Below are positions 3,310 through 41,374 of a stretch of DNA of 64,000 nucleotides, in pieces. The DNA is from Arcobacter sp. (GTDB taxonomy: Bacteria; Campylobacterota; Campylobacteria; Campylobacterales; Arcobacteraceae). The stretch is taken from the NCBI GenBank assembly GCA_024228275.1, contig JAAETO010000285.1, positions 15,874 to 79,873 of the forward strand. Reading direction: 5' to 3'. Position 1 is the stretch's first letter; each line of letters starts with the position of its first letter. The notes under the pieces were generated by a model. The model made no database searches and had not been told where the DNA came from. It saw only the letters and a program-made list of their open reading frames with translations. The position numbers and the translations under genes were made by a program.

Positions 3310-3387
3310 CGGGGCGTAGCGCAGTCTGGTTAGCGCACCTGGTTTGGGACCAGGGGGCCGGAGGTTCGAATCCTCTCGCCCCGACCA
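3310..3387 (+). tRNA. tRNA-Pro (anticodon UGG)
   Basis: Hand-folded cloverleaf. The acceptor cggggcg pairs with cgccccg, the anticodon arm is cctgg-tttggga-ccagg, the T-loop is ttcgaat and a 3' CCA is encoded. Confidence 0.9.
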
Positions 3388-3397
3388 TTTTTTTTAT

Positions 3398-3475
3398 GGT
3401 AGGTATAGCTCAGTTGGTTAGAGCATCTGGTTGTGGTTCAGAGGGCCGTGGGTTCAAATCCCATTACTTACCCCA
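3398..3475 (+). tRNA. tRNA-His (anticodon GUG)
   Basis: It has the extra 5' G(-1) typical of tRNA-His, an anticodon loop ttgtggt, a T-loop ttcaaat and an encoded CCA. Confidence 0.9.
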
Positions 3476-3484
3476 TTTTTATAA

Positions 3485-3561
<77 letters not shown>

Positions 3562-3631
3562 TTTTAAGATTTATGTTGAATTTTATCAACTAAATCTTTT
3601 TTTTTGTCTTTTTAAAAAGATATTTCAATGT

Positions 3632-3716
3632 GCGGATGTGGTGAAATTGGTAGACACGCCAGACTTAGGATCTGGTGCCTCGCGGTGTGGAGGTTCGAGT
3701 CCTCTCATCCGCACCA
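3632..3716 (+). tRNA. tRNA-Leu (anticodon UAG)
   Basis: 85 nt with a long variable arm. The anticodon arm is ccaga-cttagga-tctgg and CCA is encoded. Confidence 0.9.
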
Positions 3717-3722
3717 TTGCTT

Positions 3723-3771
3723 AAAGCTCTTTGAATATGATGTTTACATCTTATTCGAAGAGCTTTTTTTA
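3723..3771 (+). terminator. rho-independent terminator inside the tRNA cluster
   Basis: A 15-bp stem (aaagctctttgaata / tattcgaagagcttt, one G-U pair) is followed by a run of T's ending at 3770. Confidence 0.65.
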
Positions 3772-3782
3772 TCTTGTATATT

Positions 3783-3857
3783 TGGGGTATCGCCAAGTGG
3801 TAAGGCAACGGCTTTTGGTGCCGTTATTCGTAGGTTCGAATCCTACTACCCCATCCA
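3783..3857 (+). tRNA. tRNA-Gln (anticodon UUG)
   Basis: The acceptor tggggta pairs with tacccca, the anticodon arm is acggc-ttttggt-gccgt and CCA is encoded. Confidence 0.9.
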
Positions 3858-3879
3858 TTTAGTAGTAAATACTATTTAT

Positions 3880-3956
<77 letters not shown>

Positions 3957-3965
3957 ATTATTTAC

Positions 3966-4050
3966 GGTGAGGTTGGAGAGTGGTCAAATCCTGCGGATTG
4001 TAAATCCGCCGCCTTAGGCTTCGAAGGTTCAAATCCTTCTCTCACCACCA
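3966..4050 (+). tRNA. tRNA-Tyr (anticodon GUA)
   Basis: 85 nt with a long variable arm. The anticodon arm is gcgga-ttgtaaa-tccgc and CCA is encoded. Confidence 0.9.
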
Positions 4051-4062
4051 TTTTTAAAGTAT

Positions 4063-4138
4063 GGCTCGGTAGCTCAGTCGGTAGAGCAAAGGACTGAAAA
4101 TCCTTGTGTCGGCAGTTCGATTCTGCCCCGCGCCACCA
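4063..4138 (+). tRNA. tRNA-Phe (anticodon GAA)
   Basis: The anticodon arm is aagga-ctgaaaa-tcctt, the T-loop is ttcgatt and CCA is encoded. There is one mismatch in the acceptor stem. Confidence 0.85.
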
Positions 4139-4160
4139 CTTTAATAAAACTACCTCTAGT

Positions 4161-4247
4161 GCGAGTGTGGCGGAATAGGTAGACGCGTGGGACTTAAAAT
4201 CCCATTCCGGTTTCGGAGTGTGAGTTCGATTCTCACCATTCGCACCA
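4161..4247 (+). tRNA. tRNA-Leu (anticodon UAA)
   Basis: 87 nt with a long variable arm. The anticodon arm is tggga-cttaaaa-tccca and CCA is encoded. Confidence 0.9.
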
Positions 4248-4313
4248 TTTTTTGACAAAATCTTTTAAATATAATTTAAAAGATTAACGTCATCTTTCAA
4301 CAAATTTTTATAA

Positions 4314-4390
<77 letters not shown>

Positions 4391-16193: not shown

Positions 16194-18431
16194 ATGAAAA
16201 ATAACCATTTAAATATTAAAATAGCTGGCGGTTGGGGTGCGCTTATTTCATCAAATAAATTTTTACTAAAAGAAGGTTTTTTCAAGCCTTCTAAAACCTT
16301 GTTAAAATTAAATCAATCAAAAGGATTTGATTGTCCTGGATGTGCCTGGCCAGACCCTAAAAATAAAGAAAGATCTATAGCGGAGTTTTGCGAAAATGGT
16401 GTAAAAGCAATTGCCTTTGAAACTACAAAAAAAAGAGCTTCGAAGGAGTTTTTTTCAAAAAACACAGTTTCACAGTTAAATGAACTTGATGTTTATGATA
16501 TAACTAATCTTGGACGTTTAACTGAACCATTTTATTACAACAGTAAAATAGATAAATATGAAGCTATTTCTTGGGATAATGCGTTTAGTATAGTTGCAAA
16601 ACATTTAACTAATTTACCTAAACCTGATGATGCAATATTTTATACTTCAGGAAGAACAAGTAATGAAGCAGCATTTTTATATCAATTAATGGGAAGAATG
16701 ATTGGAACAAATAATTTCCCTGATTGTTCAAATATGTGTCACGAATCTTCTGGTGTTGGTATGAATGAATCAATTGGTATTGGAAAAGGTACAGTCTCTT
16801 TAGAAGATTTTGATAAAGCTGAACTTATAATGATTTTTGGACAAAACCCAGGAACTAATCATCCTAGAATGTTAAGTGAATTACAAAAAGCATCTAAACG
16901 AGGTGCTAGAATTGTCTCTATTAATCCATTAAAAGAAGCAGGTCTAGTATCTTTTATTCATCCTCAGGATATTCCTTCAATGTTAAGTAATAAAGCAACT
17001 TCAATTAGTAGCCATTATTATCAAGTAAAAGTTGGTAGTGACATGGCTTTAATTCAAGCAATAATTAAATATATTCTTGAAACTCATCCTTATGCAATTG
17101 ATAATGATTTTATTAGTGCTAATACTAATGGTTTTGAAGAGTATGAGGAAACAATTTTAAATAAATCATGGAGTGTCCTACTTGACGAAAGTTCTTTAAA
17201 AATGGATGATATTATCCAGATAAGTGAACTTTACATCTCTTCTAGTAAAACTATATGTTGCTGGGCAATGGGTTTAACTCAACATCAACATGGCGTAGCA
17301 ACAATTCAAGAAGTAATTAACTTATTGTTAATTAAAGGTAATATTGGAAAAAAAGGTGCTGGAGCATGTCCTGTTAGAGGGCATAGTAATGTTCAAGGAG
17401 ATAGAACTGTTGGAATCTCTGAGGCTCCAAAAGAAGAATTTCTAAAAAAAATAGATAGTGTGTTTGATTTTACAAGTCCTAGAAAACATGGTTATGATGT
17501 AGTTCATGCAATCAAAGCTATGCATAAAGAGAAAAACAAGGTATTTATAGGTCTTGGTGGAAATTTTGCGGATGCTGCACCTGATACTAAATTAACTTAT
17601 GAGGCTTTAAAATCATGTGCCTTAACAGTTCATATCTCTACTCATTTAAATAAAAGTCATTTAATTTGTGGAAAAGAAGCATTAATATTACCCTGTTTAG
17701 GACGAACTGAACTTGATATTCAATTAGGTGGGGTACAAAGTGTAACGGTAGAGGATTCAATGAGTATGGTTCATTCCTCTAAAGGGAGTAATATTCCTAT
17801 TTCACGAGATATTAAATCTGAACCAGCAATAATTGCTGGAATTGCTAATGCGACTTTAGGAAATGAAAAGGTAGATTTTTTAGATTTAATAAGTGATTAT
17901 AATAAAATTAGAGATAAGATAGAAGAAGTATTACCTTCTTTTTATTCTTACAATAAATCTGTACTTCAAGATGATGGATTTGAATTATATAATAGTGCTA
18001 AAAATAAAGTTTGGGATACTCCAACAAAAAAAGCTAATTTTTTAATTAATAATACACCGAATTTAAATTTAGAAGAGAATCATTTAGCTTTAATGACAAT
18101 TAGATCACATGACCAATTTAATACAACAGTGTATGATACAAATGATAGATATAGAGGAATTGTAAATAAAAGAAGAGTAATTTTTTTAAATAAAAATGAC
18201 ATGGAAAAACTTTCTTTAAAAGATTCAGATATTGTAAATATAAGATCATATTCTAAAGATAAAATTAAAAGAGAAGTATTTAATTTTGAAGTTATATCTT
18301 ATGATATTAGGGACGGGTGTGCAGCTTCATATTTCCCCGAAACTACACCTTTAGTATCTATAGAACATTATGATAAAAAAAGTTTTACACCCTCTTATAA
18401 ATTTATTGATATAACTATAGAAAAAGTTTAA
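16194..18431 (+). CDS. FdhF/YdeP-family molybdopterin (bis-MGD) oxidoreductase, cytoplasmic, substrate unknown
   Basis: 745 aa. NQSKGFDCPGCAWPDPK is the characteristic YdeP-type N-terminal Cys motif, and MGLTQHQHG and RGHSNVQGDR are typical blocks. There is no twin-arginine signal. Confidence 0.8.
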   Translation: MKNNHLNIKIAGGWGALISSNKFLLKEGFFKPSKTLLKLNQSKGFDCPGCAWPDPKNKERSIAEFCENGVKAIAFETTKKRASKEFFSKNTVSQLNELDVYDITNLGRLTEPFYYNSKIDKYEAISWDNAFSIVAKHLTNLPKPDDAIFYTSGRTSNEAAFLYQLMGRMIGTNNFPDCSNMCHESSGVGMNESIGIGKGTVSLEDFDKAELIMIFGQNPGTNHPRMLSELQKASKRGARIVSINPLKEAGLVSFIHPQDIPSMLSNKATSISSHYYQVKVGSDMALIQAIIKYILETHPYAIDNDFISANTNGFEEYEETILNKSWSVLLDESSLKMDDIIQISELYISSSKTICCWAMGLTQHQHGVATIQEVINLLLIKGNIGKKGAGACPVRGHSNVQGDRTVGISEAPKEEFLKKIDSVFDFTSPRKHGYDVVHAIKAMHKEKNKVFIGLGGNFADAAPDTKLTYEALKSCALTVHISTHLNKSHLICGKEALILPCLGRTELDIQLGGVQSVTVEDSMSMVHSSKGSNIPISRDIKSEPAIIAGIANATLGNEKVDFLDLISDYNKIRDKIEEVLPSFYSYNKSVLQDDGFELYNSAKNKVWDTPTKKANFLINNTPNLNLEENHLALMTIRSHDQFNTTVYDTNDRYRGIVNKRRVIFLNKNDMEKLSLKDSDIVNIRSYSKDKIKREVFNFEVISYDIRDGCAASYFPETTPLVSIEHYDKKSFTPSYKFIDITIEKV

Positions 18432-27727: not shown

Positions 27728-27754
27728 AATAGAAAAGCTTAGCTTCTCTATTTA
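27728..27754. terminator. bidirectional hairpin between the convergent M24 gene and nirD
   Basis: aatagaaaagc-tta-gcttctctatt (10 of 11 bp paired) with A/T runs on both sides. It overlaps the nirD stop codon. Confidence 0.45.
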
Positions 27755-28060
27755 TATTGCTATATATAAAATATCTTTTTCTATTTTACTCTCATAAGTT
27801 TTTGTACAACCACAATCATTTCCTTGTGCTTCTCCTGTTTTTAAATCGATATCCCAGTTATGTAAAGGACAAGTTACTTGATTCTCATGAACTAATCCTT
27901 CACTTAGATTACCTTGCTTATGAGGACATTCGTTATTTACAGCAAAGATAGAATTGTCTTTTGTTTTGAAAACAGCAATCTCTTTATCTTTTATTAAAAT
28001 TTTTCTTGAACCCATAAATGGGATTTCATCTATATTCGTTATTTTTACCCAGTTTGCCAT
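27752..28060 (-). CDS. nirD: nitrite reductase [NAD(P)H] small subunit NirD (Rieske-like)
   Basis: The start is placed at MANWVKI (ATG 28058-28060), 1 nt after the nirB stop, with AGGAG inside the nirB end. NECPHKQGNLSEG...TCPLHNW is the NirD Rieske-like motif. Confidence 0.85.
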   Translation of the reverse strand: MANWVKITNIDEIPFMGSRKILIKDKEIAVFKTKDNSIFAVNNECPHKQGNLSEGLVHENQVTCPLHNWDIDLKTGEAQGNDCGCTKTYESKIEKDILYIAI

Positions 28061-28061
28061 T

Positions 28062-30527
28062 TTATATCTCCTTTGCTTCAAAGTTTGTTAAGTTTTTTGT
28101 ATCAATTACAATTGGGTTGAACTCTTTTGTAAATCCAGATTCATTTGCCTCTTGCCACGGATCAACTTGTGCATATTTTTGCGATTCTTCAAATCTTAAA
28201 GCACAAGCTTCTCTATTTTTTTCATCATTTAAAATTGCATCTTTTACATAATCTAAACCAACTCTTTCTACCCAATGAGCAGTTCTTTCTAAGTAATATG
28301 CATCTTCTCTATAAAATTGTGTTAGAGCTTTTACATATTCAAAAAGTTCTTCATCTGTTTGTACTTTTGTAAAAAAGTCAGTTACTCTAACTTTTATTCC
28401 ACCATTACCAGCTATATGAATTTCCCAACCTGAATCAACGCCAATAACGCCAATATCTTTAATAGTAGCTTCTGCACAATTTCTAGGACATCCAGATACA
28501 GCTAGTTTAAATTTATGAGGAGTCCATGAACCCCAAGTTAGTCTTTCTAAATCTACACCCATTTGCATAGAGTCTTGTGTTCCAAATCTACACCATTGAT
28601 TACCAACACAAGTTTTTACTGTTCTTAGCCCTTTTGCATATGCTTGTCCTGAAACAAAACCACAATCATTTAAATCTTGCCACATAGGACCTAATTGCTC
28701 TTTTTTTACACCTAATAAATCTAATCTTTGACCACCAGTAAATTTGACAGTTGGTACATCATATTTAACAGCTATATTTGCGATATCCTTAAGTTCTTTA
28801 GGGCTTGTTAGTCCTCCCCAAATTCTAGGAACTACAGAATATGTACCATCTTTTTGTATATTTGCAGATAATCTATCATTTACTAATGCACTTCTTTTAT
28901 CATTTTTGTATTTATTGTCATTATATTTTACAAGTAAGTAATAGTTTACAGCAGGTCTACATTTTGCACACCCATCTTTAGTTTTCCAGTCAAGTTTTTT
29001 AAATACCTCATATACATTATTAAATTCATATTCATTTATATGTTTTTTAATTTCTTTATGTCCAACATCACAACAGTCACAAATACCTTCTACTGTATCT
29101 TGGTATTCATCCCCTAAAGTGTTCACTAAAATTTGTTCAACTAATCCTAGACAAGAACCACATGAAGCACCAGCTTTTGTACATGATTTTACTTCTGTTA
29201 AAGTTTTTAAGTCATTTTCTTTAATTGCATTTACGACATCGCCTTTGCATACGCCATTACATCCACAAACTTCTTCATCGTCACTCATAGAATTAACATC
29301 GTCTCCACCATGTCCTGAATCACCTAAAAGAGCAGCTTTTCCAAATAAAATCTTAGTTCTTAAATCACTTATATCAGTATGTTCTTTTAATAATTTTAAA
29401 TACCATGAAGCATCAGCTGTATCTCCATATAAAACTATACCAATAATTTTGTTATCATAAATTACAAGTTTTTTATATACTCCAACTTTTTCATCAAGTA
29501 AGATTAATTCTTCAGTTGTTTCATCTCCTAGATAATCTCCTGCTGAAAATAAATCAATTCCAGAAATTTTTAATCTTGTTGATAAGGTTGAACCTTTATA
29601 TCCTTCACTATCTTTATTAGCTAATTTCTTAGCACAAAATTTAGCTTGTTCATAAAGAGGAGCTACTAGACCATAAGTATTACCTTTATGTTCTGCACAC
29701 TCTCCAATAGCAAAAATATCTTCATCACTTGTTTGTAAGTGATCATTGACGACAATACCTTTTTTTATTTCAAGTCCTGCTTCATTTGCAAGAATAGTAT
29801 TTGGAATAATTCCAGTTGCAAAGACTACAATATTTGATATTACTTTTTCACCATCTGTAAAGCTAACTTGTTCAACTTTTTGTGAACCATGAATTTCTTC
29901 AATTGTGGTATTTAATTTAAATTCAATACCGTAACTTTCTAAATTTTTTTGTAATAATTTACCAGCAGTTGAGTCTAATTGTTGACTCATAATTGAAGCA
30001 CTTCTATGTACTAAAATAGTTTTAATACCATGCATAGCAATACCATAAGCAGCTTCAAGTCCAAGAAGACCACCACCTACAACTACAGCAGTTTTATCTT
30101 TTGAAATAAGTTCTAAAATAGTATCACTATCTAGTTTTGTTCTAAAACCAATAACGTTTTCTAAGTCACTTCCTTTTGTTTTAGGTACAAAAGAGTTTGA
30201 ACCAGTTGCAATTAAAAGTTTGTCATAGTTTAACTCTAATCCACTTTGGCTTTTAACTGTTTTTTTATTTTTATTTATAGCAATTACTTTATCACCTTTA
30301 TGCAAAGTAATATTATGTTGTTCGTACCATGTTTGATGATTTATTATTGTATCTTCAAAAGTTTTTTCACCTGATAAAAGGTATGACAACATTATTCTGT
30401 TATAGTTGAAGTGGGGTTCATCTCCAAAAATTGTGATATCATATTTATCTGTAGTAATATCAAAAAGATCTTCAATAGTACGAAGACCACTCATTCCATT
30501 TCCTATAACTATTAGTTTCTCTTTCAC
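28062..30527 (-). CDS. nirB: assimilatory nitrite reductase [NAD(P)H] large subunit NirB
   Basis: 821 aa. It has an N-terminal FAD/NAD Rossmann fold (VIGNGMSG), a BFD-like 2Fe-2S region (CGCNGVCKG, CGSCLG) and a siroheme/4Fe-4S motif (GCPRNCAE, TCVGNQWCRFG). Confidence 0.9.
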   Translation of the reverse strand: MKEKLIVIGNGMSGLRTIEDLFDITTDKYDITIFGDEPHFNYNRIMLSYLLSGEKTFEDTIINHQTWYEQHNITLHKGDKVIAINKNKKTVKSQSGLELNYDKLLIATGSNSFVPKTKGSDLENVIGFRTKLDSDTILELISKDKTAVVVGGGLLGLEAAYGIAMHGIKTILVHRSASIMSQQLDSTAGKLLQKNLESYGIEFKLNTTIEEIHGSQKVEQVSFTDGEKVISNIVVFATGIIPNTILANEAGLEIKKGIVVNDHLQTSDEDIFAIGECAEHKGNTYGLVAPLYEQAKFCAKKLANKDSEGYKGSTLSTRLKISGIDLFSAGDYLGDETTEELILLDEKVGVYKKLVIYDNKIIGIVLYGDTADASWYLKLLKEHTDISDLRTKILFGKAALLGDSGHGGDDVNSMSDDEEVCGCNGVCKGDVVNAIKENDLKTLTEVKSCTKAGASCGSCLGLVEQILVNTLGDEYQDTVEGICDCCDVGHKEIKKHINEYEFNNVYEVFKKLDWKTKDGCAKCRPAVNYYLLVKYNDNKYKNDKRSALVNDRLSANIQKDGTYSVVPRIWGGLTSPKELKDIANIAVKYDVPTVKFTGGQRLDLLGVKKEQLGPMWQDLNDCGFVSGQAYAKGLRTVKTCVGNQWCRFGTQDSMQMGVDLERLTWGSWTPHKFKLAVSGCPRNCAEATIKDIGVIGVDSGWEIHIAGNGGIKVRVTDFFTKVQTDEELFEYVKALTQFYREDAYYLERTAHWVERVGLDYVKDAILNDEKNREACALRFEESQKYAQVDPWQEANESGFTKEFNPIVIDTKNLTNFEAKEI

Positions 30528-31126: not shown

Positions 31127-32167
31127 TTAAGTCTTATCTTTTGATAGTTCGACTATTTTTTCAATATTAAAATAATATTTACCATCCTCTTCACTATATG
31201 GTATAGTACCATCTACTTCTGTAAAAACAAAAACTTTTTTGTCCTTACTTAATAGGTATGGTCTATTATTCTCATATTTAAAAAATCTATTTTTTAAATA
31301 TCTTTTATTATTTACTTCTTCACTAATATAATAATTTGAATAACCATTATGATTAAACATATTTAGATTGTGAACTGGAAAAGCATGATAGCCTTTTGCA
31401 TGATTTCTTATGGTTAATGCAACTTTTTCGTCTTTGCCGTTACCTTTAATAAAATAGTCATTTACGTAAAGTCGTTCCTCTTCAAGTGTTGCTATATCAT
31501 ATAAGATTAATTTTTCTTCGTTATCTTTTAAGAATTTTGGATGATATTGACCTGAAGCTAATCCGTAAACTCCCGCTTTATTAGCTACATGAGAGAGTTT
31601 TGTATAATCTGTTGCTGTATTAATTGCAACCTGAATTGCTGAAACAACTAATCCAATTAATCCGTTATTTCCGTCAAGTCCAGAATAAGAATAAGCATAG
31701 GCATTATTTTGCCATATTTCTTCTCCTGTATTTGCATCAAGTAAAGAAAACGATAATCCTACATCAACACTACTAGATACAACAGCATAATTAGTATCCC
31801 AGGCATTGATATCTACGTAAAGAATTGCATCAGGATTAAAAATTTCTTTCAGTTTTGATACAGGTATGCTTCTAATAAGTTCTGCATCAACTAGATTTTC
31901 ACTTTTAAAGAAACTGTCAACTAAATGGACAGGAAATACGTAATATCCTTTTTCTGACAAGGGCTTAGATATTGTATATCGAAAATGGTCAGTAGCATCT
32001 ACTGATGTTGTAGTATTTTTTGCCGGTAAAACTAAAATTGATTTAGGATGTTTAGAATATATTTTTGGGTATAAACTTCCTTTCGAAATTTGAGATTGTG
32101 ACGGAGCACAACCTGTTAAAACCATCATTGATAAAACCGCAATGATTATATAAATTGTATTTTTCAT
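31127..32167 (-). CDS. DUF799-like lipoprotein (GNA1162-type) with a ~130-aa C-terminal extension
   Basis: 346 aa with lipobox VLTGC. SILVLPAKNTTTSVDATDHF...SEKGYYVFPV...NPDAILYVDINAWDT fits the DUF799 pattern as I remember it. There is a 4-nt overlap with the upstream gene. Confidence 0.65.
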   Translation of the reverse strand: MKNTIYIIIAVLSMMVLTGCAPSQSQISKGSLYPKIYSKHPKSILVLPAKNTTTSVDATDHFRYTISKPLSEKGYYVFPVHLVDSFFKSENLVDAELIRSIPVSKLKEIFNPDAILYVDINAWDTNYAVVSSSVDVGLSFSLLDANTGEEIWQNNAYAYSYSGLDGNNGLIGLVVSAIQVAINTATDYTKLSHVANKAGVYGLASGQYHPKFLKDNEEKLILYDIATLEEERLYVNDYFIKGNGKDEKVALTIRNHAKGYHAFPVHNLNMFNHNGYSNYYISEEVNNKRYLKNRFFKYENNRPYLLSKDKKVFVFTEVDGTIPYSEEDGKYYFNIEKIVELSKDKT

Positions 32168-32532
32168 GATTCCTCACCATATAATTTTCTAATAACTCTA
32201 TTTATAAATACACTTGATTCAGGATAAGTCTCTTTTTCAAGAAGAAAATACTTTTTTGCTTTTAAAGTTTTGTTAGTTTCAAAAAGCATTTGTCCATATT
32301 CAGCGTATATACCTGGTGCAACTCTTTTTTTGGCTTCATTAGATTGAGTAATTATTTTTTTTAATTCTAATAAGTGTTCCTCTAAAACTTTCTTTTCATG
32401 ACCTTTCATACCATATTCAGACGAACTTTCAACATAATTATTCCATAAGTATAAAGGAGGTTGAGTTTGTTGACACCCTGTAAAAAGAACTATAAAAGAT
32501 GTAAATAATATAGTTTTAATATAATATTTCAT
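32164..32532 (-). CDS. DUF4810-like small lipoprotein
   Basis: 122 aa with lipobox LFTGC. YLWNNY...EEHL.EL..II....K.R.V.PGIYAEYG.ML fits the DUF4810 pattern. Its start overlaps the upstream stop (TAATG). Confidence 0.6.
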   Translation of the reverse strand: MKYYIKTILFTSFIVLFTGCQQTQPPLYLWNNYVESSSEYGMKGHEKKVLEEHLLELKKIITQSNEAKKRVAPGIYAEYGQMLFETNKTLKAKKYFLLEKETYPESSVFINRVIRKLYGEES

Positions 32533-32900
32533 TATAAATTAACCTCCACTGTGCTATTTGAACCTAAGTAAATATTTTTATTTAAAATAAAGTTGTTATT
32601 GAAATCATATACTTTTAGATTAATATTACCACTTTGAACTTCGTATAACTTATTAACTGTATCATCCTGACAATTACCAGTTTTTTTATTAACTGAACAA
32701 GCTTCTAATTGAAATTTATAGTTATCATTGATTATAATTAATAAACTTTCTTTTGCTTCTTTTGTAAATTTTAAATATCCAATATCTCTTATTTGTGTAT
32801 TTGTAGTTTTGTAATTACAACCAACAAACAATGTAGTAAATAATATTATTAATATAACAAACTTATTTTTGAACATATAATTCATCTTTTTTTGCTCCAT
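32532..32900 (-). CDS. small lipoprotein, unknown family
   Basis: Lipobox LFVGC. The true start is probably an internal Met (MNYMFKNKF or MFKNKF, 32885 or 32876). Either way it overlaps the 3' end of the CsgG-like gene. Confidence 0.55.
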   Translation of the reverse strand: MEQKKMNYMFKNKFVILIILFTTLFVGCNYKTTNTQIRDIGYLKFTKEAKESLLIIINDNYKFQLEACSVNKKTGNCQDDTVNKLYEVQSGNINLKVYDFNNNFILNKNIYLGSNSTVEVNL

Positions 32901-33813
32901 TTAAATTTCCTTCAACAAAAGTACAAATTGAACCTTCATCTGTATAGTTTGTACCAAACTGATTTAATATCTGAAGTTTAGCAATTTTTGCTCCAGGTAA
33001 TTCAACTGTCATACCTGTTTGAGGATTTTTAATACTTTTTCCCTTTTTATAAACAAATAAAGTATCTCCAATTCTAAGTCCTTGTTTAGCTCCTCCTGCA
33101 ATCATTATTGAATCGTTATTAATATCTAGAACATATGATCTCCAAGGTTTATTTAATAAGTTTTGCATTATTCCATCTACTACACTACTAATTGCTGTAG
33201 ATATTGCTTTATCATTTAAAGTTGAATCATATCCAACATGTTTACCTAAGCCAAAAGAAGTACCAGCTTCACTTTTAGCTTCACCCGCACCTTCTTGAGC
33301 AAAGATAATTTGTCCTGTTTTAACATCAATTAATCTGACACTTACTTTTGCATATGCTGTTTGAACTTTAGTTCTAGAAAAAACTCCTGTATCTGACATA
33401 TTTTTTCTGCCAAATTCAGTAACTGAACCAACAATAAGATAGTCTGAACCAATTTTTAATGATTTCAAGTTATAATCTTGTATTTCATTATTTACAATAT
33501 TAATATCATCTCTTTCAAGTAAAATAAACTTTCCTGAATTTGCAAGTTTTGCTGATAAGATATCGGTAGCTTGTTTCTCAGCAACATAATTATTGTTTAA
33601 ACCAAATAGCTTAGACTTACCATATTGAGCTTCATTACTAAATCTGGTAATTGCAACTTTTCTTTTTAAAAGAGGTTCCTCTTTTTTTATAATAAGTTTT
33701 GGTTTTTCAATTGTAGGTTTTTCAACTTTTACTATTTTATTAGAGCTTGTGGCACAACCTGTAATAAAAATAGATACTAAAACACTAATTGCAATTAATG
33801 TATATTTTCTCAT
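32863..33813 (-). CDS. CsgG/HfaB-family outer-membrane lipoprotein (curli-secretion-channel-like)
   Basis: 316 aa with lipobox FITGC. KVAITRFSNEAQYGK...ATDILSAKLANSGKFILLERDDI...YLIVGSVTEFG matches the CsgG family pattern. Confidence 0.7.
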   Translation of the reverse strand: MRKYTLIAISVLVSIFITGCATSSNKIVKVEKPTIEKPKLIIKKEEPLLKRKVAITRFSNEAQYGKSKLFGLNNNYVAEKQATDILSAKLANSGKFILLERDDINIVNNEIQDYNLKSLKIGSDYLIVGSVTEFGRKNMSDTGVFSRTKVQTAYAKVSVRLIDVKTGQIIFAQEGAGEAKSEAGTSFGLGKHVGYDSTLNDKAISTAISSVVDGIMQNLLNKPWRSYVLDINNDSIMIAGGAKQGLRIGDTLFVYKKGKSIKNPQTGMTVELPGAKIAKLQILNQFGTNYTDEGSICTFVEGNLNGAKKDELYVQK

Positions 33814-34080: not shown

Positions 34081-36291
34081 CTAAACCCCATCAGGAACAT
34101 TAACACTATGAAGTTGAACTGCACACTGTTTGTAATTTGGTTCAAAAGATTTTGGATCAAAATCATCTATTGTAATGATATTTATTAATTGTTCATTATA
34201 ATGAAAAGGAATAAATATAGCTCCAGGTCTTACATTTTGAGACTCTCTTACTATAATATTTTTTATTTTTCCTCTTATAGATGATATATCCATTCTATCT
34301 CCACTTTTAACTTTTAATTTCAAAGCATCTGTTGGATTAATCTCAATCCACGCTTCAGGAGCAAGATCATTTAATATTGATATTGTTTTTGTTTTAGTTC
34401 TTGTATGCCATTGTTCAACTGTACGACCTGTATTTAACATAAAAGGAAAATCTTTATTTTCTTCTTCTTTTAGTGGTAACCAATCTAAAGCTAAAAGTTT
34501 TGCTTTTCCATCTTGTGTAGGGCAAGACATATCCTCACTATAAAGTCTACTTGTACCTTTTGGATTAGCTTCATTACATGGCCATTGGATACCACCTAGT
34601 TCTTCAATAAGTTCATATGTCATACCAGTATAATCACAAAGTCTACCTCGACTAACTTTTTTCCATTCGTTAAAGGCGTCTTTTGGTTCTTTCCAGTTTG
34701 GATATAATTTTTCTTTAAGGTCAAAGTATTTTGAAAATTCTAATACAATATTAAAATCACTTTTTGTATTTACTAAGGGGTCAACAGCTTTTTTAGCATA
34801 ATTACATCTTCTTTCACTATTTGTATAAGTACCCTCTTTTTCACTCCATGTTGCAGCAGAAAAAACTATATCGGCATTTAATGCAGTATCGCTTTTAAAA
34901 GCATCTTGAACTACAAGTAAGTCTAGTTTTCTTAGTGCACGTCTAAGTTTATTTTGATCAGGAAATGATACAAGAGGATTAGTTGCTACAATCCATAAAG
35001 CTTTTATTTCACCTTTATCAATTGCATCAATTATTTGAGGATAGGAATATCCCCTAGAACTTGGTACATCTTCTACAGGAAGATTTACAATATTTGCATA
35101 TTCTTCTCTATCTTGTAAACTAGCAAAGTTTCTATATCCTGGTATTGATGAAGTAAAACCAGTCTCTCTTGTACCCATAGCATTACATTGACCAGTAATT
35201 GAAAGTGCTGTCGCACCTTTACGTCCAAGATTTCCAGTAATAAGTGCAAGATTACAAATAGAACTTACCGTATCTGTTCCAATAGAACTTTGGTTTACTC
35301 CCATAGTCCAAGCACTCATTGCAGCAGGAGATGAAGCATAAATTTTAGCAATATTATATAACTCTTGAACTTCTATACCTGTAATGTTTGCAACTTTTTC
35401 TGGTGTGTAGTTTTCTATTATATGTTTTTCAAACTCTTCATATCCACTCGTTCTAGTTTTAATAAATTTCTCATCTTGCCAACCTTGTTTTAAGATTATG
35501 TGACAAAGACCATTGATAAGAGCTAAATCGCTTCTAGGTTTCAACGGTACATAAATATCTGCCATTTTTGCTGTTTTAGAAACTCTAGGGTCTATAACTA
35601 TAATTGTAGGTTTTTTACCGGTTGTTTTTTCATTTTTTGCAATATGTAATTTTAAAATAGGGTGGTTATCTGCAATATTTGCTCCTATTAGCATAATTAC
35701 ATCTGCGTATGAAAAATCTTCATAACAACCAACTGGACCATCACTTCCAAAAGTCTGTTTATATCCCATAACTGCACTTGCCATACATAAAGTTGTATTT
35801 CCGTCATAGTTATTTGTTTTAAGACCCATTTGTACAAATTTTCCAAGTGTATAAAACTCTTCAGTTAAAAGTTGACCAGTTGAGATGCAGGCAATTGCTT
35901 TATTTCCATATTTCTTTTGTATATCTTTAAACTTGTCACTTGTAGTTTGAAATACTTCATTCCAAGTAGAATCTATAAGTTGACCTTGTTTTCTTATCAT
36001 AGGTTTTGTAAATCTATTTTCACTTTGAACCATCTCATGCTCACTTAATCCTTTTGGGCAAAGTGTACCTTTGTTTACAGGATGAGATGGGTCACCTTTT
36101 ATATAAACAGGTTTATTATTCTTCGTTCCTATATATAAACCACAACCCACACCACAATAACCGCAAGTACTTCTTACCCAATTAGTTGGTGCTTTATGTT
36201 TTGATATTCTTCCAAAGGTCTTGTCATTAGTTAAAGAGTATTCCTCTTCTTTTATACTTACACCTAAAAAGTTTTTAATTTTATTAATCAT
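34081..36291 (-). CDS. nasA: assimilatory nitrate reductase catalytic subunit (Mo-bisMGD, NasA/NarB type)
   Basis: 736 aa. It has the N-terminal 4Fe-4S motif CGYCGVGCG...CPKG and no twin-arginine signal. It has typical molybdopterin oxidoreductase blocks and a C-terminal beta-barrel domain. Confidence 0.85.
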   Translation of the reverse strand: MINKIKNFLGVSIKEEEYSLTNDKTFGRISKHKAPTNWVRSTCGYCGVGCGLYIGTKNNKPVYIKGDPSHPVNKGTLCPKGLSEHEMVQSENRFTKPMIRKQGQLIDSTWNEVFQTTSDKFKDIQKKYGNKAIACISTGQLLTEEFYTLGKFVQMGLKTNNYDGNTTLCMASAVMGYKQTFGSDGPVGCYEDFSYADVIMLIGANIADNHPILKLHIAKNEKTTGKKPTIIVIDPRVSKTAKMADIYVPLKPRSDLALINGLCHIILKQGWQDEKFIKTRTSGYEEFEKHIIENYTPEKVANITGIEVQELYNIAKIYASSPAAMSAWTMGVNQSSIGTDTVSSICNLALITGNLGRKGATALSITGQCNAMGTRETGFTSSIPGYRNFASLQDREEYANIVNLPVEDVPSSRGYSYPQIIDAIDKGEIKALWIVATNPLVSFPDQNKLRRALRKLDLLVVQDAFKSDTALNADIVFSAATWSEKEGTYTNSERRCNYAKKAVDPLVNTKSDFNIVLEFSKYFDLKEKLYPNWKEPKDAFNEWKKVSRGRLCDYTGMTYELIEELGGIQWPCNEANPKGTSRLYSEDMSCPTQDGKAKLLALDWLPLKEEENKDFPFMLNTGRTVEQWHTRTKTKTISILNDLAPEAWIEINPTDALKLKVKSGDRMDISSIRGKIKNIIVRESQNVRPGAIFIPFHYNEQLINIITIDDFDPKSFEPNYKQCAVQLHSVNVPDGV

Positions 36292-36303
36292 GATTATTCC
36301 TAT

Positions 36304-37896
36304 TTATGTACGTTGGTTACCAGCAAAAAAATTACCCGCAAGTCCCTGTGCTACAGCCGTTTTATAAAATAGAAGTCTTGATACTATTTCACTTGAAAAT
36401 GAAATAACAAAAGCCAAAGACAATAAAATAATAGCCTCTGTATAATTTTCAGAAGCAATAAGTAGCATTGTTAACAATGGAAGTCCAAGAGCTCCTATAT
36501 AAAGTGTAATTTCTCTATATAAGGTGTGTTTTTTAAAGTTTTTTTCATATAATGTTTTCGTTTTATTTAATTGATAAAAATTAGAATTATTTTTATCTAA
36601 ATATTTATAAAAATCACTTTCTTTAGTAAACTCTGTATATTGTAAATATGAAATAAATATTGCTATTGATATAAGAAAACTAGCACTTAAATAACAAGTA
36701 TTTACAATTAAAATAATTGATACTAATAACATACCAATATAAGATACATTGAAAAAGATTTTTGTAGTTTCTTTTTTATTCCAAGATGGTCTAGCTTTTA
36801 TTCTATAAATCATAGATTGTGAATATATACCATATATTCCAATGCTTAAAATAATTATTTCAAGACTAAGTTTAAATAATTGATTAAATTCAAAAAAGAA
36901 AACTATTAGTAATAGTGTTAATCCTAAAGCATAAAGACCTAAAGCTAAAGCTTCTCTACTTAACCATGAAGTTTTAATATTCTTCATAGCAGTATGTGCT
37001 AATATTGGACGACCTAAATGAAGTGCTGAAAGTGGTAACCCAATTGCAACAGGAATAAAAACAGCAAGAATCATCCATATATTTGGCTGATTTAAATTAA
37101 AGCCTAGAAAATTTATTAATTCATTAGCCACTATTGCAGCAAATCCACCAAGTGATATTTGAGTTAGTACTGTCATAAATACTAAAGGCAATTCAGAGTG
37201 GTTTGGTTTTATTATATGTGCATCTGCTGGAATCACTTCTTCACTTTTTTCATTTATTGTATATCTTGTTGTTGGTTTTGTTATATTTACATCTGGAAGA
37301 TGAGGTGCAATACCTTCTTTTTCTAAACCTTCATTTAACCAATCTTTAGTATTTACAACTTCAATTTCAATTGCACCTGCTGGACAGGCTTGAATACAGG
37401 CTGGTGTTTCACTTACTTCAAGTTTTTCATGACACATATGACATTTTGTTACTATTCCTCTATTATGATTAAAAACAGGAACTTCATAAGGGCAATTCCA
37501 AGTACAGTATTGACACCCTATACATGTTTCATCTTCATGGTATACTATTCCATTATCGAATTTTATATAAGATTCTGTTGGACAGCCTTTTAAACATTCA
37601 GGATCTATACAGTGATTACATGACATTGAATTAAAATGGTTTGATACATTAGGAAAAATACCACTTTGAGTTTCTCCAACTCTTCTCCATTTTATATCTG
37701 AAGGATTGTTATTTTGTTCATTACATGCAACTTCACAACAGTGGCATCCTACACAAGCTGTTGCATCAAAATGAAATCTATATTGTTCACCTTTTTTAGG
37801 CTTTTCTATATCGATACTATAGTTACCACATTGCATATCAGTTTGTGCTTTTTTATTTATAAAGCTTTCTAAAGGAGTTGATTCTTTTATACTCAT
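36304..37896 (-). CDS. fusion of a four-cluster [4Fe-4S] ferredoxin (DmsB/NrfC-like) to an eight-helix DmsC-like membrane anchor
   Basis: 530 aa. There are four Cys groups: CVGCHCCEVAC, CNHCIDPECLKGCP, CIGCQYCTWNCP, CHMC...CIQACP. About eight hydrophobic helices follow. There is no signal peptide. The stop lies 12 nt before the nasA start. Confidence 0.75.
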   Translation of the reverse strand: MSIKESTPLESFINKKAQTDMQCGNYSIDIEKPKKGEQYRFHFDATACVGCHCCEVACNEQNNNPSDIKWRRVGETQSGIFPNVSNHFNSMSCNHCIDPECLKGCPTESYIKFDNGIVYHEDETCIGCQYCTWNCPYEVPVFNHNRGIVTKCHMCHEKLEVSETPACIQACPAGAIEIEVVNTKDWLNEGLEKEGIAPHLPDVNITKPTTRYTINEKSEEVIPADAHIIKPNHSELPLVFMTVLTQISLGGFAAIVANELINFLGFNLNQPNIWMILAVFIPVAIGLPLSALHLGRPILAHTAMKNIKTSWLSREALALGLYALGLTLLLIVFFFEFNQLFKLSLEIIILSIGIYGIYSQSMIYRIKARPSWNKKETTKIFFNVSYIGMLLVSIILIVNTCYLSASFLISIAIFISYLQYTEFTKESDFYKYLDKNNSNFYQLNKTKTLYEKNFKKHTLYREITLYIGALGLPLLTMLLIASENYTEAIILLSLAFVISFSSEIVSRLLFYKTAVAQGLAGNFFAGNQRT

Positions 37897-38125
37897 GTTA
37901 GTATCCTAGTTTTTATTTTATTTGTTTAATTGATAGTTTAAATAATACTTTAGAATCAAAACTTTCAAAACTCTCTTTTTCTAATTTTTAGTAACTCTTT
38001 TGTTATAAGATTTGCTTTATATATATTATTATAACAGTTAAAAAAAGCATAAATAAAATTTGTTTGTATATTATATATACAATATTAGATTAAATAGCTG
38101 TATAATTAAAAAACAAAAATAATTA

Positions 38126-39748
38126 TCAATTATTTATTAATAAAATTATATTAATAATCAATAAAAAATAAAATCCAACTTTATAAAATTTTAATGGATC
38201 TCTTTGTAAAAGAGGAGTTTCCTTATTAAAAAATGGTTTAATTTTATTTGTATTTTCAAGTTCAAAAAGCATATGCGAATAGTTTTTATATCTTAAGTCT
38301 TCATCTACACTTATAGCTCTTAAAATTAGACTTTCTAACCAATTTGGTAGATTGTTATTATATGTTTTTGGATTTTTAGCTTTTTTAAAATTAGGATTTT
38401 GAAATGGTTCTATATCTCCATATGGAAGTTTTCTTGTAAGACTTTCGTAAAGGCTTACCCCTATAGAAAATACTTCTGTTTTTTCATTTATAAAAGAATC
38501 TTTAAATCGTTCAGGTGCTAAATATGTAGGAGTTCCAGCTCTAGAGTTTACAGAATAAATTTCTGTAATAGAACCAAAATCAATTACTTTAAATATTTTT
38601 TTACCATCACGTTCTAAGATAATTATATTTTCAGGTTTTATATCTCCATGAACTAAATCATATTTTAGTAAATATTGACTCATATGCAAAAGTGTTTTTG
38701 CTAATAAAATAGTTTCTTCAATAGATAAAGCTCTTTTCTTTAGGTATGATTTTAACGTGATACCATCAAGTCTTGTCATAAGATAATATCTTGCAGTACG
38801 ATTTTTAGGTACAACTGTTTTTGGAAAGAATCCAGCTTTTAGTCTCTTTGCATTCCATACTTCTTTTACAAATAAATCTAAAATCTCTTCGTTGTCTATT
38901 GCTTCAAGTGGAGCAAATTTAATTACATATTCGATACCTTTTTTTTCACAAAGCCAAGTTCTATTATTTTGTATTAAAGATAGTTTTAATTTATAACCGT
39001 CAATTTCATCGTCTTTTTTTAATTTTTTAGGAATACTTAGAGATAATTTTTTAAGCTTTGAAACTTCATCAGTATCTAAAATATCAATTATAATAGCACT
39101 AGTGTCATCTGGCAGATTGTCCTTTACTGTTTTACTAGCTTTTTTTACGAGTACACTAGCACTATATTTCATATATTTTAATAACGATTCATCATCTAAT
39201 AGTGAATATAAACCATCACTACAAAGTAAAATAGAGTCATCTTTTAGTATATTATTTTCAAAATAAAAGATTTCTACATCTTCTTCTATACCAATTGCAT
39301 TGCTTAAAACATTATCCATTCCATCTTCATTGTGATCAAGAGATAGTTGTTTTAGTTTATTATCTCTTTTTATATAAATTCTACTATCACCAACATTTGC
39401 ACCATATAATCTATCTCCATCAATTACAACGATAGCTAAGGTAGTTACAAGTTCTGGTCTTTGATATTGAACAATAGATTCTTGATATAAAATTGTGTTA
39501 ATAGAGTTTATAAAAAATTTTATTGATTTTTCTACACTCCAAGCAAGTGGCCTATTTTTAAAATTATTTATAAGATGAGTACTTACTCTTTTAGCGGCTT
39601 CAGCTCCAGCACTAGCTGATCCAACTCCATCACATAAAACTGCAATAGCAATATTATTTGTAATTTTAATATCAATAAAATCATCACCTACAAGTTCTTG
39701 CCTTTTTGCAAGTGTAAATCCTGATGTTTTAATATTACTTTTAGCCAT
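38126..39748 (-). CDS. bifunctional PP2C-type Ser/Thr phosphatase + Hanks-type Ser/Thr kinase with a C-terminal TM anchor
   Basis: 540 aa. PP2C motifs are LCDGVGS, GDSRIYI, LLCSDGLYS and DDTSAIII. Kinase motifs are HGDIKPENIII, DFGS and GTPTYLAPE. The C-terminal hydrophobic tail is VGFYFLLIINIILLI. Confidence 0.8.
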   Translation of the reverse strand: MAKSNIKTSGFTLAKRQELVGDDFIDIKITNNIAIAVLCDGVGSASAGAEAAKRVSTHLINNFKNRPLAWSVEKSIKFFINSINTILYQESIVQYQRPELVTTLAIVVIDGDRLYGANVGDSRIYIKRDNKLKQLSLDHNEDGMDNVLSNAIGIEEDVEIFYFENNILKDDSILLCSDGLYSLLDDESLLKYMKYSASVLVKKASKTVKDNLPDDTSAIIIDILDTDEVSKLKKLSLSIPKKLKKDDEIDGYKLKLSLIQNNRTWLCEKKGIEYVIKFAPLEAIDNEEILDLFVKEVWNAKRLKAGFFPKTVVPKNRTARYYLMTRLDGITLKSYLKKRALSIEETILLAKTLLHMSQYLLKYDLVHGDIKPENIIILERDGKKIFKVIDFGSITEIYSVNSRAGTPTYLAPERFKDSFINEKTEVFSIGVSLYESLTRKLPYGDIEPFQNPNFKKAKNPKTYNNNLPNWLESLILRAISVDEDLRYKNYSHMLFELENTNKIKPFFNKETPLLQRDPLKFYKVGFYFLLIINIILLINN

Positions 39749-41113: not shown

Positions 41114-41374
41114 TAAAAATTCCTTTTAAATATTCTTAAAATAATTATATAATGAAAAGTATGAAATTTTGGCATTTGTCTGTATAAAATATATCCAATA
41201 TTTTAAAAATATTAGTATATAAAATATTGATTATATTGTATACACAATATTTCTTAATGATTATATCACTTCAAAAGATTAAATAAATAAAACATGATAT
41301 TATTAAATAGGGTGGATAGAGCTTTTATATAATAGAGATTATAAGAGAAGAATAAATCTTCTCTTATATATTTG

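Follow-up and report, generated by a model that had tools for sequence, protein, structure and literature searches.

Assimilatory nitrate reductases of the NasA, NasC and NarB type are cytoplasmic enzymes of ~700 residues with an N-terminal [4Fe-4S] cluster and a cysteine ligand to molybdenum, and their genes are linked to those of nitrate transporters and assimilatory nitrite reductases. Their electrons come from ferredoxin or flavodoxin (NarB, Azotobacter NasB) or from NADH via NasB, NasC and NasG, and we know of no membrane quinol-oxidising partner among these donors. An enzyme resembling this group in all the features listed is encoded in a 64,000-nucleotide stretch of an Arcobacter sp. 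genome (contig JAAETO010000285.1, positions 15,874 to 79,873; hereafter the window, with a G+C content of ~28%). The gene directly before it, at 36304–37896 on the minus strand, encodes a fusion of a DmsB-type iron-sulfur (FeS) domain with a DmsC-type membrane anchor. We consider it probable that the fusion and the molybdenum (Mo) enzyme form a membrane-bound quinol:nitrate oxidoreductase for nitrate assimilation, in which the fusion serves as the dedicated electron donor. The features of the locus are collected in Table 1.

The closest architectural relatives are the DMSO reductase DmsABC of E. coli and the polysulfide reductase PsrABC of Thermus, which, like the proteins encoded here, combine a catalytic subunit carrying molybdenum bis-pyranopterin guanine dinucleotide (Mo-bis-PGD), a subunit with four [4Fe-4S] clusters, and a haem-free anchor of eight transmembrane (TM) helices that oxidises quinol. 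In DmsABC, however, B and C are separate polypeptides, the gene of the catalytic subunit comes first in the operon, and that subunit is of the DmsA type; E. coli DmsAB are exported by the Tat pathway and face the periplasm. Here B and C are one polypeptide, the catalytic gene follows the fusion gene, the catalytic subunit is of the Nap/Nas type, a Tat signal is absent, and the anchor has an inverted charge bias. Since neither the periplasmic location nor the separate subunits are found and the catalytic subunit belongs to another clade, the system is not a member of DmsABC. NapGH of Campylobacterota, likewise an FeS and membrane module without haem, passes menaquinol electrons to a nitrate reductase of the Nap/Nas clade, as we propose for the fusion, but NapG is periplasmic, NapH is an unrelated four-TM protein, and the pair serves the periplasmic respiratory NapA. 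NarGHI shares with the proposed complex its quinol dependence and a nitrate site facing the cytoplasm. It differs in that NarG is from another Mo-enzyme clade with an aspartate ligand, and in that NarI is a di-haem b protein where quinol is oxidised on the periplasmic side, giving a proton-motive redox loop. In Mycobacterium tuberculosis, quinol-dependent NarGHI supplies nitrite for assimilation through NirBD, according to the passage of PMC13332983 that cites Malm et al., 2009, which provides a physiological precedent for quinol-fed assimilation with an unrelated enzyme.

Only one NrfD/DmsC-type complex has been proposed to face the cytoplasm, namely the sulfite:quinone oxidoreductase SoeABC of Allochromatium vinosum and Aquifex aeolicus, with its anchor inverted (2021 review, PMC8076601). 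Its quinone site is placed on the negative (N) side of the membrane, and SoeC has His65 and Glu87 (PMC8076601). As described, SoeABC resembles the arrangement proposed here: its FeS and catalytic subunits face the cytoplasm and are held by an NrfD-like anchor in inverted orientation. It is unlike ours in having three separate subunits, electron flow from sulfite to quinone, and a SoeA-type catalytic subunit in a sulfur-metabolism neighbourhood, where the present locus has a Nap/Nas motif and nitrate and nitrite genes as neighbours. The same review lists no Nas-linked and no fused NrfD-type member (PMC8076601). A literature search, with subscription journals largely outside its scope, returned no paper in which nitrate assimilation is connected to a protein of the DmsB/DmsC or NrfC/NrfD type, and Campylobacterota genome papers merely name NasA/NarB and NirA. 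What appears to be new is the combination of a CISM-type complex with a Nas enzyme, together with its orientation.

The two halves of the fusion are clear in profile searches. Pfam detects Fer4_11 at residues 87–178 (70 bits, above the cut-off) and DmsC (PF04976) at residues 234–511, the latter with 72.1 bits against a gathering threshold of 22.3 and covering profile positions 6–273 of 275. The best NCBIfam model is DmsB TIGR02951 (141 bits, E=2.7e-41), below its equivalog cut-off of 214 bits, and by this measure the protein is a DmsB relative and no equivalog. A BLASTP alignment to E. coli DmsB (31% identity over 202 residues) extends through the DmsB C-terminal tail, and the alignment to E. 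coli DmsC (26% identity) resumes directly at the DmsC N-terminus. With the DmsB match running straight into the DmsC match, this is a plain end-to-end B-C fusion. Sixteen cysteines make up four [4Fe-4S] motifs (C48/51/54/58, C93/96/101/105, C125/128/131/135 and C152/155/167/171), and none of the 16 varies among 40 close homologs or among 79 diverse ones with as little as 29% identity. A hydropathy scan places eight hydrophobic helices at residues 238–260, 273–291, 317–335, 340–358, 380–398, 400–421, 463–481 and 488–506, in agreement with an AlphaFold2 model computed from a deep alignment (pLDDT 89.8, pTM 0.88). A shallower alignment of the 40 close homologs had left the FeS domain with a pLDDT below 50 and weak Foldseek matches, and the deeper one was used instead. 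With it, Foldseek matches the FeS half to ArrB (6cz7_B, 5e-10), FdnH and PsrB (2vpw_B, TM-score 0.76), and the membrane half to PsrC (2vpw_C) and ActC (8k9e_C) with a probability of 1.0. An earlier sequence-only reading of this DNA had described four complete [4Fe-4S] motifs and eight helices in one polypeptide, and Pfam, the cysteine pattern, hydropathy and AlphaFold2 all agree with that description. The protein is at once a DmsB/NrfC-type four-cluster ferredoxin and a DmsC/YnfH-type anchor with PF04976 and eight TM helices.

The B and C modules share a single open reading frame not only here: full-length homologs of 500–620 residues make up no fewer than 130 clusters formed at 50% identity. 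Databases name them 'DMSO reductase anchor subunit', 'DmsC/YnfH family molybdoenzyme membrane anchor subunit' or 'formate dehydrogenase iron-sulfur subunit'. Ahead of the first cysteine group, 67 of 130 distant fusions carry a conserved N-terminal extension of 40–90 residues with motifs such as 'LTAVERF..H...YY..LIP', while the Campylobacterota extension is shorter ('TPLESFI...MQCGNYSI'). The extension may be a docking element.

The distribution of charged residues shows which way the fusion sits in the membrane. Its loops hold 22 lysines and arginines on the FeS side and none on the opposite side. In the 40 Campylobacterota homologs the corresponding averages are 20.3 and 0.4, and across 131 sequences (130 of them cluster representatives, 31–54% identical) they are 15.9 and 0.7, every one biased toward the FeS side. 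By the positive-inside rule, this places the FeS domain in the cytoplasm, as the sequence-only reading had supposed. E. coli DmsC, with its N-terminus and DmsB-facing loops in the periplasm, has an opposite and weaker bias, with ~8 lysines and arginines in cytoplasmic loops versus 4. The anchor of the fusion is thus predicted to be inverted in the membrane while retaining its geometry relative to the FeS module. The targeting signals agree with what the earlier reading had stated: the N-terminus of the fusion is hydrophilic, and neither it nor that of the Mo enzyme has a twin-arginine (RR) motif or a hydrophobic signal. No RR motif followed by a hydrophobic stretch was found among the 130 distant fusions, and no RR motif at the N-terminus of 50 Mo-enzyme orthologs.

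Conservation in the membrane domain suggests a working quinol or quinone site and not a passive tether, and we regard these residues as the strongest argument for such a site. The quinone site of DmsC consists of Ser62, His65, Ser82 and Glu87; replacement of His65 stops quinol oxidation, and Glu87 is important in quinol coordination (PMC8076601). All four have counterparts in the fusion, as S290, H293, S310 and E315 in the alignment to E. coli DmsC. H293 and E315 are invariant in the 131 sequences and in the 79 diverse ones, and H293, S310, S313 and E315 remain invariant down to 29% identity.

The partner enzyme contains three Mo-bis-PGD enzyme domains in Pfam, an N-terminal [4Fe-4S] site, and a Mo ligand at Cys169 (35785–35787). 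Its closest structure in the Protein Data Bank is the monomeric NapA of Desulfovibrio desulfuricans (2jio, E=8e-134), and its ligand motif, LCMASAV, aligns with Cys140-Met141 of NapA. A cytoplasmic Mo-bis-PGD enzyme with an N-terminal [4Fe-4S] cluster and a Cys-Met ligand motif is what is expected of an assimilatory nitrate reductase in structural terms. NCBIfam scores are 530 bits for NasC (cut-off 1100), 494 for NasA (cut-off 1000) and 442 for NapA, also below its cut-off, which sets the enzyme apart as a distinct Nas-like subfamily. An N-terminal extension of ~42 residues is conserved across the 50 orthologs. The top NCBIfam match is a formate dehydrogenase model (Fdh-alpha, 601 bits), but we reject a formate dehydrogenase on the basis of the Cys-Met motif, which is not the (Se)Cys-His of that family. 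The fusion gene was said in the earlier reading to end 12 nt before nasA, and the spacer between its stop codon and the ATG is indeed 12 nt and includes an AGGA.

The low scores against every curated nitrate reductase model leave room for another chemistry: the fusion might reduce quinone while the Mo enzyme oxidises a substrate in the manner of SoeABC, or the substrate might be an oxyanion other than nitrate. SoeABC, the sole inward-facing NrfD-type complex described, does work toward quinone (PMC8076601). We nevertheless consider this very improbable, given the Cys-Met motif, a best structural relative of the nitrate reductase type, and nitrate or nitrite genes as neighbours in every phylum examined. 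Nitrite oxidation (E0' ~+0.42 V), moreover, cannot reduce menaquinone.

The pairing of such a fusion, with its predicted quinol site, and a Nas-like enzyme is widely conserved. A scan of one genome per species identified 485 genomes with a close relative of the fusion, and the loci of the best 80 were studied. All 80 are from Campylobacterota (Poseidonibacter, Arcobacter, Halarcobacter, Sulfurovum, Nitratifractor, Hydrogenimonas and Sulfurospirillum), the nearest genomes being Arcobacteraceae, with a Poseidonibacter lekithochrous fusion that is 76% identical. In 52 of the 63 Campylobacterota loci with enough downstream sequence, a Mo-enzyme gene follows the fusion gene directly on the same strand, mostly after a gap of 0–30 nt (median ~20 nt), and in many the genes overlap. 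NarK is encoded in 51 of 81 loci, NirA in 48 of 81 and NirB in 13 of 81. A NirA resembling ferredoxin-nitrite reductase lies immediately upstream of the fusion in 37 of 66 loci, and NrtABC-like uptake genes are linked to the pair in Arcobacteraceae. In loci with nirA right beside the fusion gene, nitrite reductase might receive electrons from the module as well.

An exhaustive profile search returned 668 clusters (50% identity) at E<=1e-30, and 130 of the best 150 are fusions of at least 480 residues. Six distant members with 29–37% identity, from Omnitrophota, Pirellulales, Polyangiales, Acidobacteria and two further genomes, were inspected. A Mo-enzyme gene comes immediately after the fusion gene in all six; five of these genes are complete (730–760 residues), and the sixth is truncated where the contig stops. 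In five of the six, NirA-like or NirBD genes adjoin the pair, and four of these five also have an MFS transporter gene. The pair occurs in Campylobacterota, Omnitrophota, Planctomycetota, Acidobacteriota and Myxococcota, and across these phyla it is the constant centre of gene clusters for nitrate and nitrite assimilation. Paired Mo enzymes of the other phyla are 37–39% identical to that of the window. An unpaired paralog in related Arcobacteraceae, which we call Mo670 and which is absent from the window, is only 30–32% identical, and the N-terminal extension is present in the paired enzymes and missing from Mo670, a pattern in favour of co-inheritance of fusion and Mo enzyme. The sequence-only reading had regarded the wiring as unusual. 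This holds in that we found no description of a Nas-linked DmsBC fusion in the literature covered, but the arrangement is no rarity of this genome and belongs to a large and widespread family. In a plasmid collection there was no full-length fusion, only separate DmsB and DmsC pairs, and the DmsC domain alone gave no match.

Two of the distant genomes differ in how the nitrite reductase is built or accompanied. One (L084, 6293–8011) has a gene for a CysJ-like diflavin reductase between the NirA-like gene and the fusion gene. A Pirellulales metagenome-assembled genome (L085, 5151–7988) encodes a 945-residue protein that joins the NirA-like part to Rieske and FAD/NAD domains. Judged by gene content, the supply of the nitrite reductase varies in these genomes while the pair of fusion and Mo enzyme stays constant.

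Several observations weigh against a dedicated fusion-Mo enzyme couple. Eleven of the 63 loci lack a Mo-enzyme gene directly downstream, although in one of them it is found 3.3 kb on, after an insertion, and a few loci have no nitrogen-assimilation genes within 10 kb. No alternative partner was seen in loci L052, L081, L020, L022 and L033, which lack a downstream Mo enzyme and instead have unrelated genes or insertions there (restriction-modification, GNAT, PIN, BrkB). The presence of a second Nas-like enzyme beside the fusion in related Arcobacteraceae means that the pairing is not strictly one to one. This enzyme, Mo670, is shorter, has the Cys-Met motif, and is encoded in the same cluster in many Arcobacteraceae (for example L002 3128–5140 and L004 6287–8275); the window locus lacks both Mo670 and the NrtABC-like genes. 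Finally, the window does encode a possible NAD(P)H-dependent partner on the strand of the Mo enzyme, 3.5 kb downstream of it: NirB, with FAD/NAD, BFD [2Fe-2S] and siroheme domains in Pfam, and the Rieske-type NirD (together 27752–30527).

On this last point the earlier reading was wrong, as it had stated that no NAD(P)H-flavoprotein partner was present. With NirBD in the window, a route of the Paracoccus type is a live rival: electrons from NADH would flow through NirB and NirD to nitrite as well as to the Mo enzyme, and the fusion would be a membrane tether near NarK or take part in redox transfer only slightly or under certain conditions. In Paracoccus denitrificans, NasB and NasG reportedly hand NADH electrons to NasC in this way. 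NirBD genes also directly follow that of the Mo enzyme in several loci from Arcobacteraceae, Acidobacteria and Omnitrophota. However, most Sulfurovum, Nitratifractor and Hydrogenimonas loci keep the pair with NirA only, with no NirBD in the region read, and a pure tether needs neither 16 invariant cysteines nor quinol-site residues that are invariant across phyla. We therefore judge the NADH route unlikely.

If quinol is the donor, the two polypeptides with their three modules would be the equivalent of a DmsABC or PsrABC complex turned toward the cytoplasm. Menaquinol would be oxidised at the H293/E315 site, and its electrons would cross the fused DmsB domain by way of its four [4Fe-4S] clusters to the N-terminal [4Fe-4S] (FS0) cluster of the Nas enzyme and on to its Mo-bis-PGD at Cys169, where imported nitrate would be reduced to nitrite. 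Nitrite would then be converted to ammonium by NirBD in the window, or by NirA in many relatives. With midpoint potentials of about -0.07 V for menaquinol and +0.42 V for nitrate, such a reaction would be strongly exergonic, and it would spare NAD(P)H or low-potential ferredoxin. Protons would be released from quinol and taken up in nitrate reduction on the same side of the membrane; with both half-reactions on the N-side, the step would probably be electroneutral, which fits an assimilatory function. A quinol-driven cytoplasmic Nas system is also what the earlier reading had put forward, and every in silico test that was run, including the charge bias, the quinol-site residues and the conserved pair, agrees with it. 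What the sequences show directly is the domain make-up, the orientation signal, the conserved quinol-site residues and the linkage of the genes; from these we infer complex formation, quinol as the donor, the direction of electron flow and the energetics.

A membrane-bound enzyme linked to the quinone pool could also be respiratory. The pair would then be a cytoplasmic nitrate reductase comparable to NarGHI, serving as an electron sink or in respiration. NarK-type transporters serve respiration too, and NirBD can detoxify nitrite. This dissimilatory or redox-balancing role seems quite unlikely to us. The pair is consistently linked to NirA or NirBD of the assimilatory type, and in Arcobacteraceae to NrtABC-like uptake genes as well; its anchor has no haem b; and a quinol site predicted on the cytoplasmic side leaves no redox loop and no obvious energy gain.

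A quinol:nitrate oxidoreductase for assimilation would add a third type of donor to the two textbook kinds. We lean, with some caution, toward a third class of assimilatory nitrate reductase that depends on quinol, has a fused DmsBC module facing inward as its base, is present in at least five phyla and is currently mis-annotated. If this is correct, sulfur- and hydrogen-oxidising chemolithoautotrophs, in which sulfide:quinone oxidoreductase (SQR) or hydrogenase directly reduces the quinone pool, would be able to use nitrate as a nitrogen source at no expense of NAD(P)H or of costly reduced ferredoxin. Hundreds of protein clusters that now bear the names of DMSO reductase or formate dehydrogenase subunits would change assignment, with a benefit to the annotation of the nitrogen cycle in metagenomes. 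The family would also be the second and much larger case, after SoeABC, of an inverted NrfD/DmsC-type anchor, useful for studying how topology inversion and the sidedness of quinone sites evolve. The existence of cultured carriers (Poseidonibacter lekithochrous, P. ostreae) makes the hypothesis directly testable.

Table 1. Coordinates of the fusion gene, its sub-features and the surrounding gene cluster, counted from the first nucleotide of the window.
Feature	Position	Strand	Support or remark
NarK-family MFS nitrate/nitrite transporter, 426 aa	39833..41113	-	TIGR00886 NarK family 232 bits, Pfam MFS_1; first gene of the cluster
PP2C phosphatase–Ser/Thr kinase fusion, 540 aa; hydrophobic helix at the C-terminus	38126..39748	-	Pfam PP2C_2, Pkinase
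Fusion protein, 530 aa: N-terminal extension, DmsB-type 4x[4Fe-4S] domain, DmsC-type 8-TM anchor	36304..37896	-	
Fusion FeS domain, ~residues 38-215, 16 Cys in four [4Fe-4S] motifs	37252..37785	-	
Fusion DmsC-type membrane domain, residues 234-511, eight helices	36364..37197	-	PF04976 E=6.6e-20
Predicted quinol site, TM2-TM3 loop, codons H293 (37018-37020) to E315 (36952-36954), including S310 and S313	36952..37020	-	
12-nt spacer ATAGGAATAATC with ribosome-binding AGGA, from fusion stop codon to nasA start codon	36292..36303	-	
Nas-type Mo-bis-PGD nitrate reductase, 736 aa	34081..36291	-	three Pfam domains
Four-gene lipoprotein cassette: CsgG-like, 122-aa lipoprotein, DUF4810, GNA1162-like	31127-33813	-	
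NirB, NAD(P)H-dependent assimilatory nitrite reductase large subunit, 821 aa	28062..30527	-	Pfam Pyr_redox_2, Fer2_BFD, NIR_SIR
NirD, Rieske-type small subunit, 109 aa	27752..28081	-	Pfam Rieske, Rieske_2

The window NirB shares 79% identity with its counterpart directly after the Mo enzyme at locus L002 of an Arcobacteraceae relative, and the two NirD are 65% identical by tblastn. In four other loci (L013, L016, L026 and L034), nirB starts ~40–110 nt after the Mo-enzyme gene. Given this proximity in relatives, the lipoprotein cassette between nasA and nirBD in the window looks like an insertion into a nas operon.

At the other end of the cluster, the PP2C-kinase gene beside narK is kept in 44 of the 81 Campylobacterota loci. 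It is a presumed regulator and may control nitrate transport or assimilation through phosphorylation. The 229-nt gap upstream of the fusion gene contains a perfect palindrome, TGTATATTATATATACA, at 38065–38081, which is the sole match to TGTATA-N3-9-TATACA in the 64 kb (expected, 0.08) and may be an operator. Upstream of narK (41181–41244) there is an imperfect inverted repeat of 25 nt whose ends are the same hexamers. Rfam, promoter and terminator scans of the cluster were uninformative except for tRNAs elsewhere and a single terminator-like hairpin ahead of narK.

Elsewhere in the window, a second molybdoenzyme, of the FdhF/YdeP family, is encoded at 16194–18431 on the plus strand (891 bits against a cut-off of 582). 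The gene directly upstream of it on the same strand encodes an 804-aa DUF3726 protein, and other upstream genes on that strand encode a BCCT transporter, an M19 dipeptidase and an aldehyde dehydrogenase. Ten tRNA genes (Pro, His, Arg, Leu, Gln, Met, Tyr, Phe, Leu and Arg) are clustered at 3310–4390, also on the plus strand.

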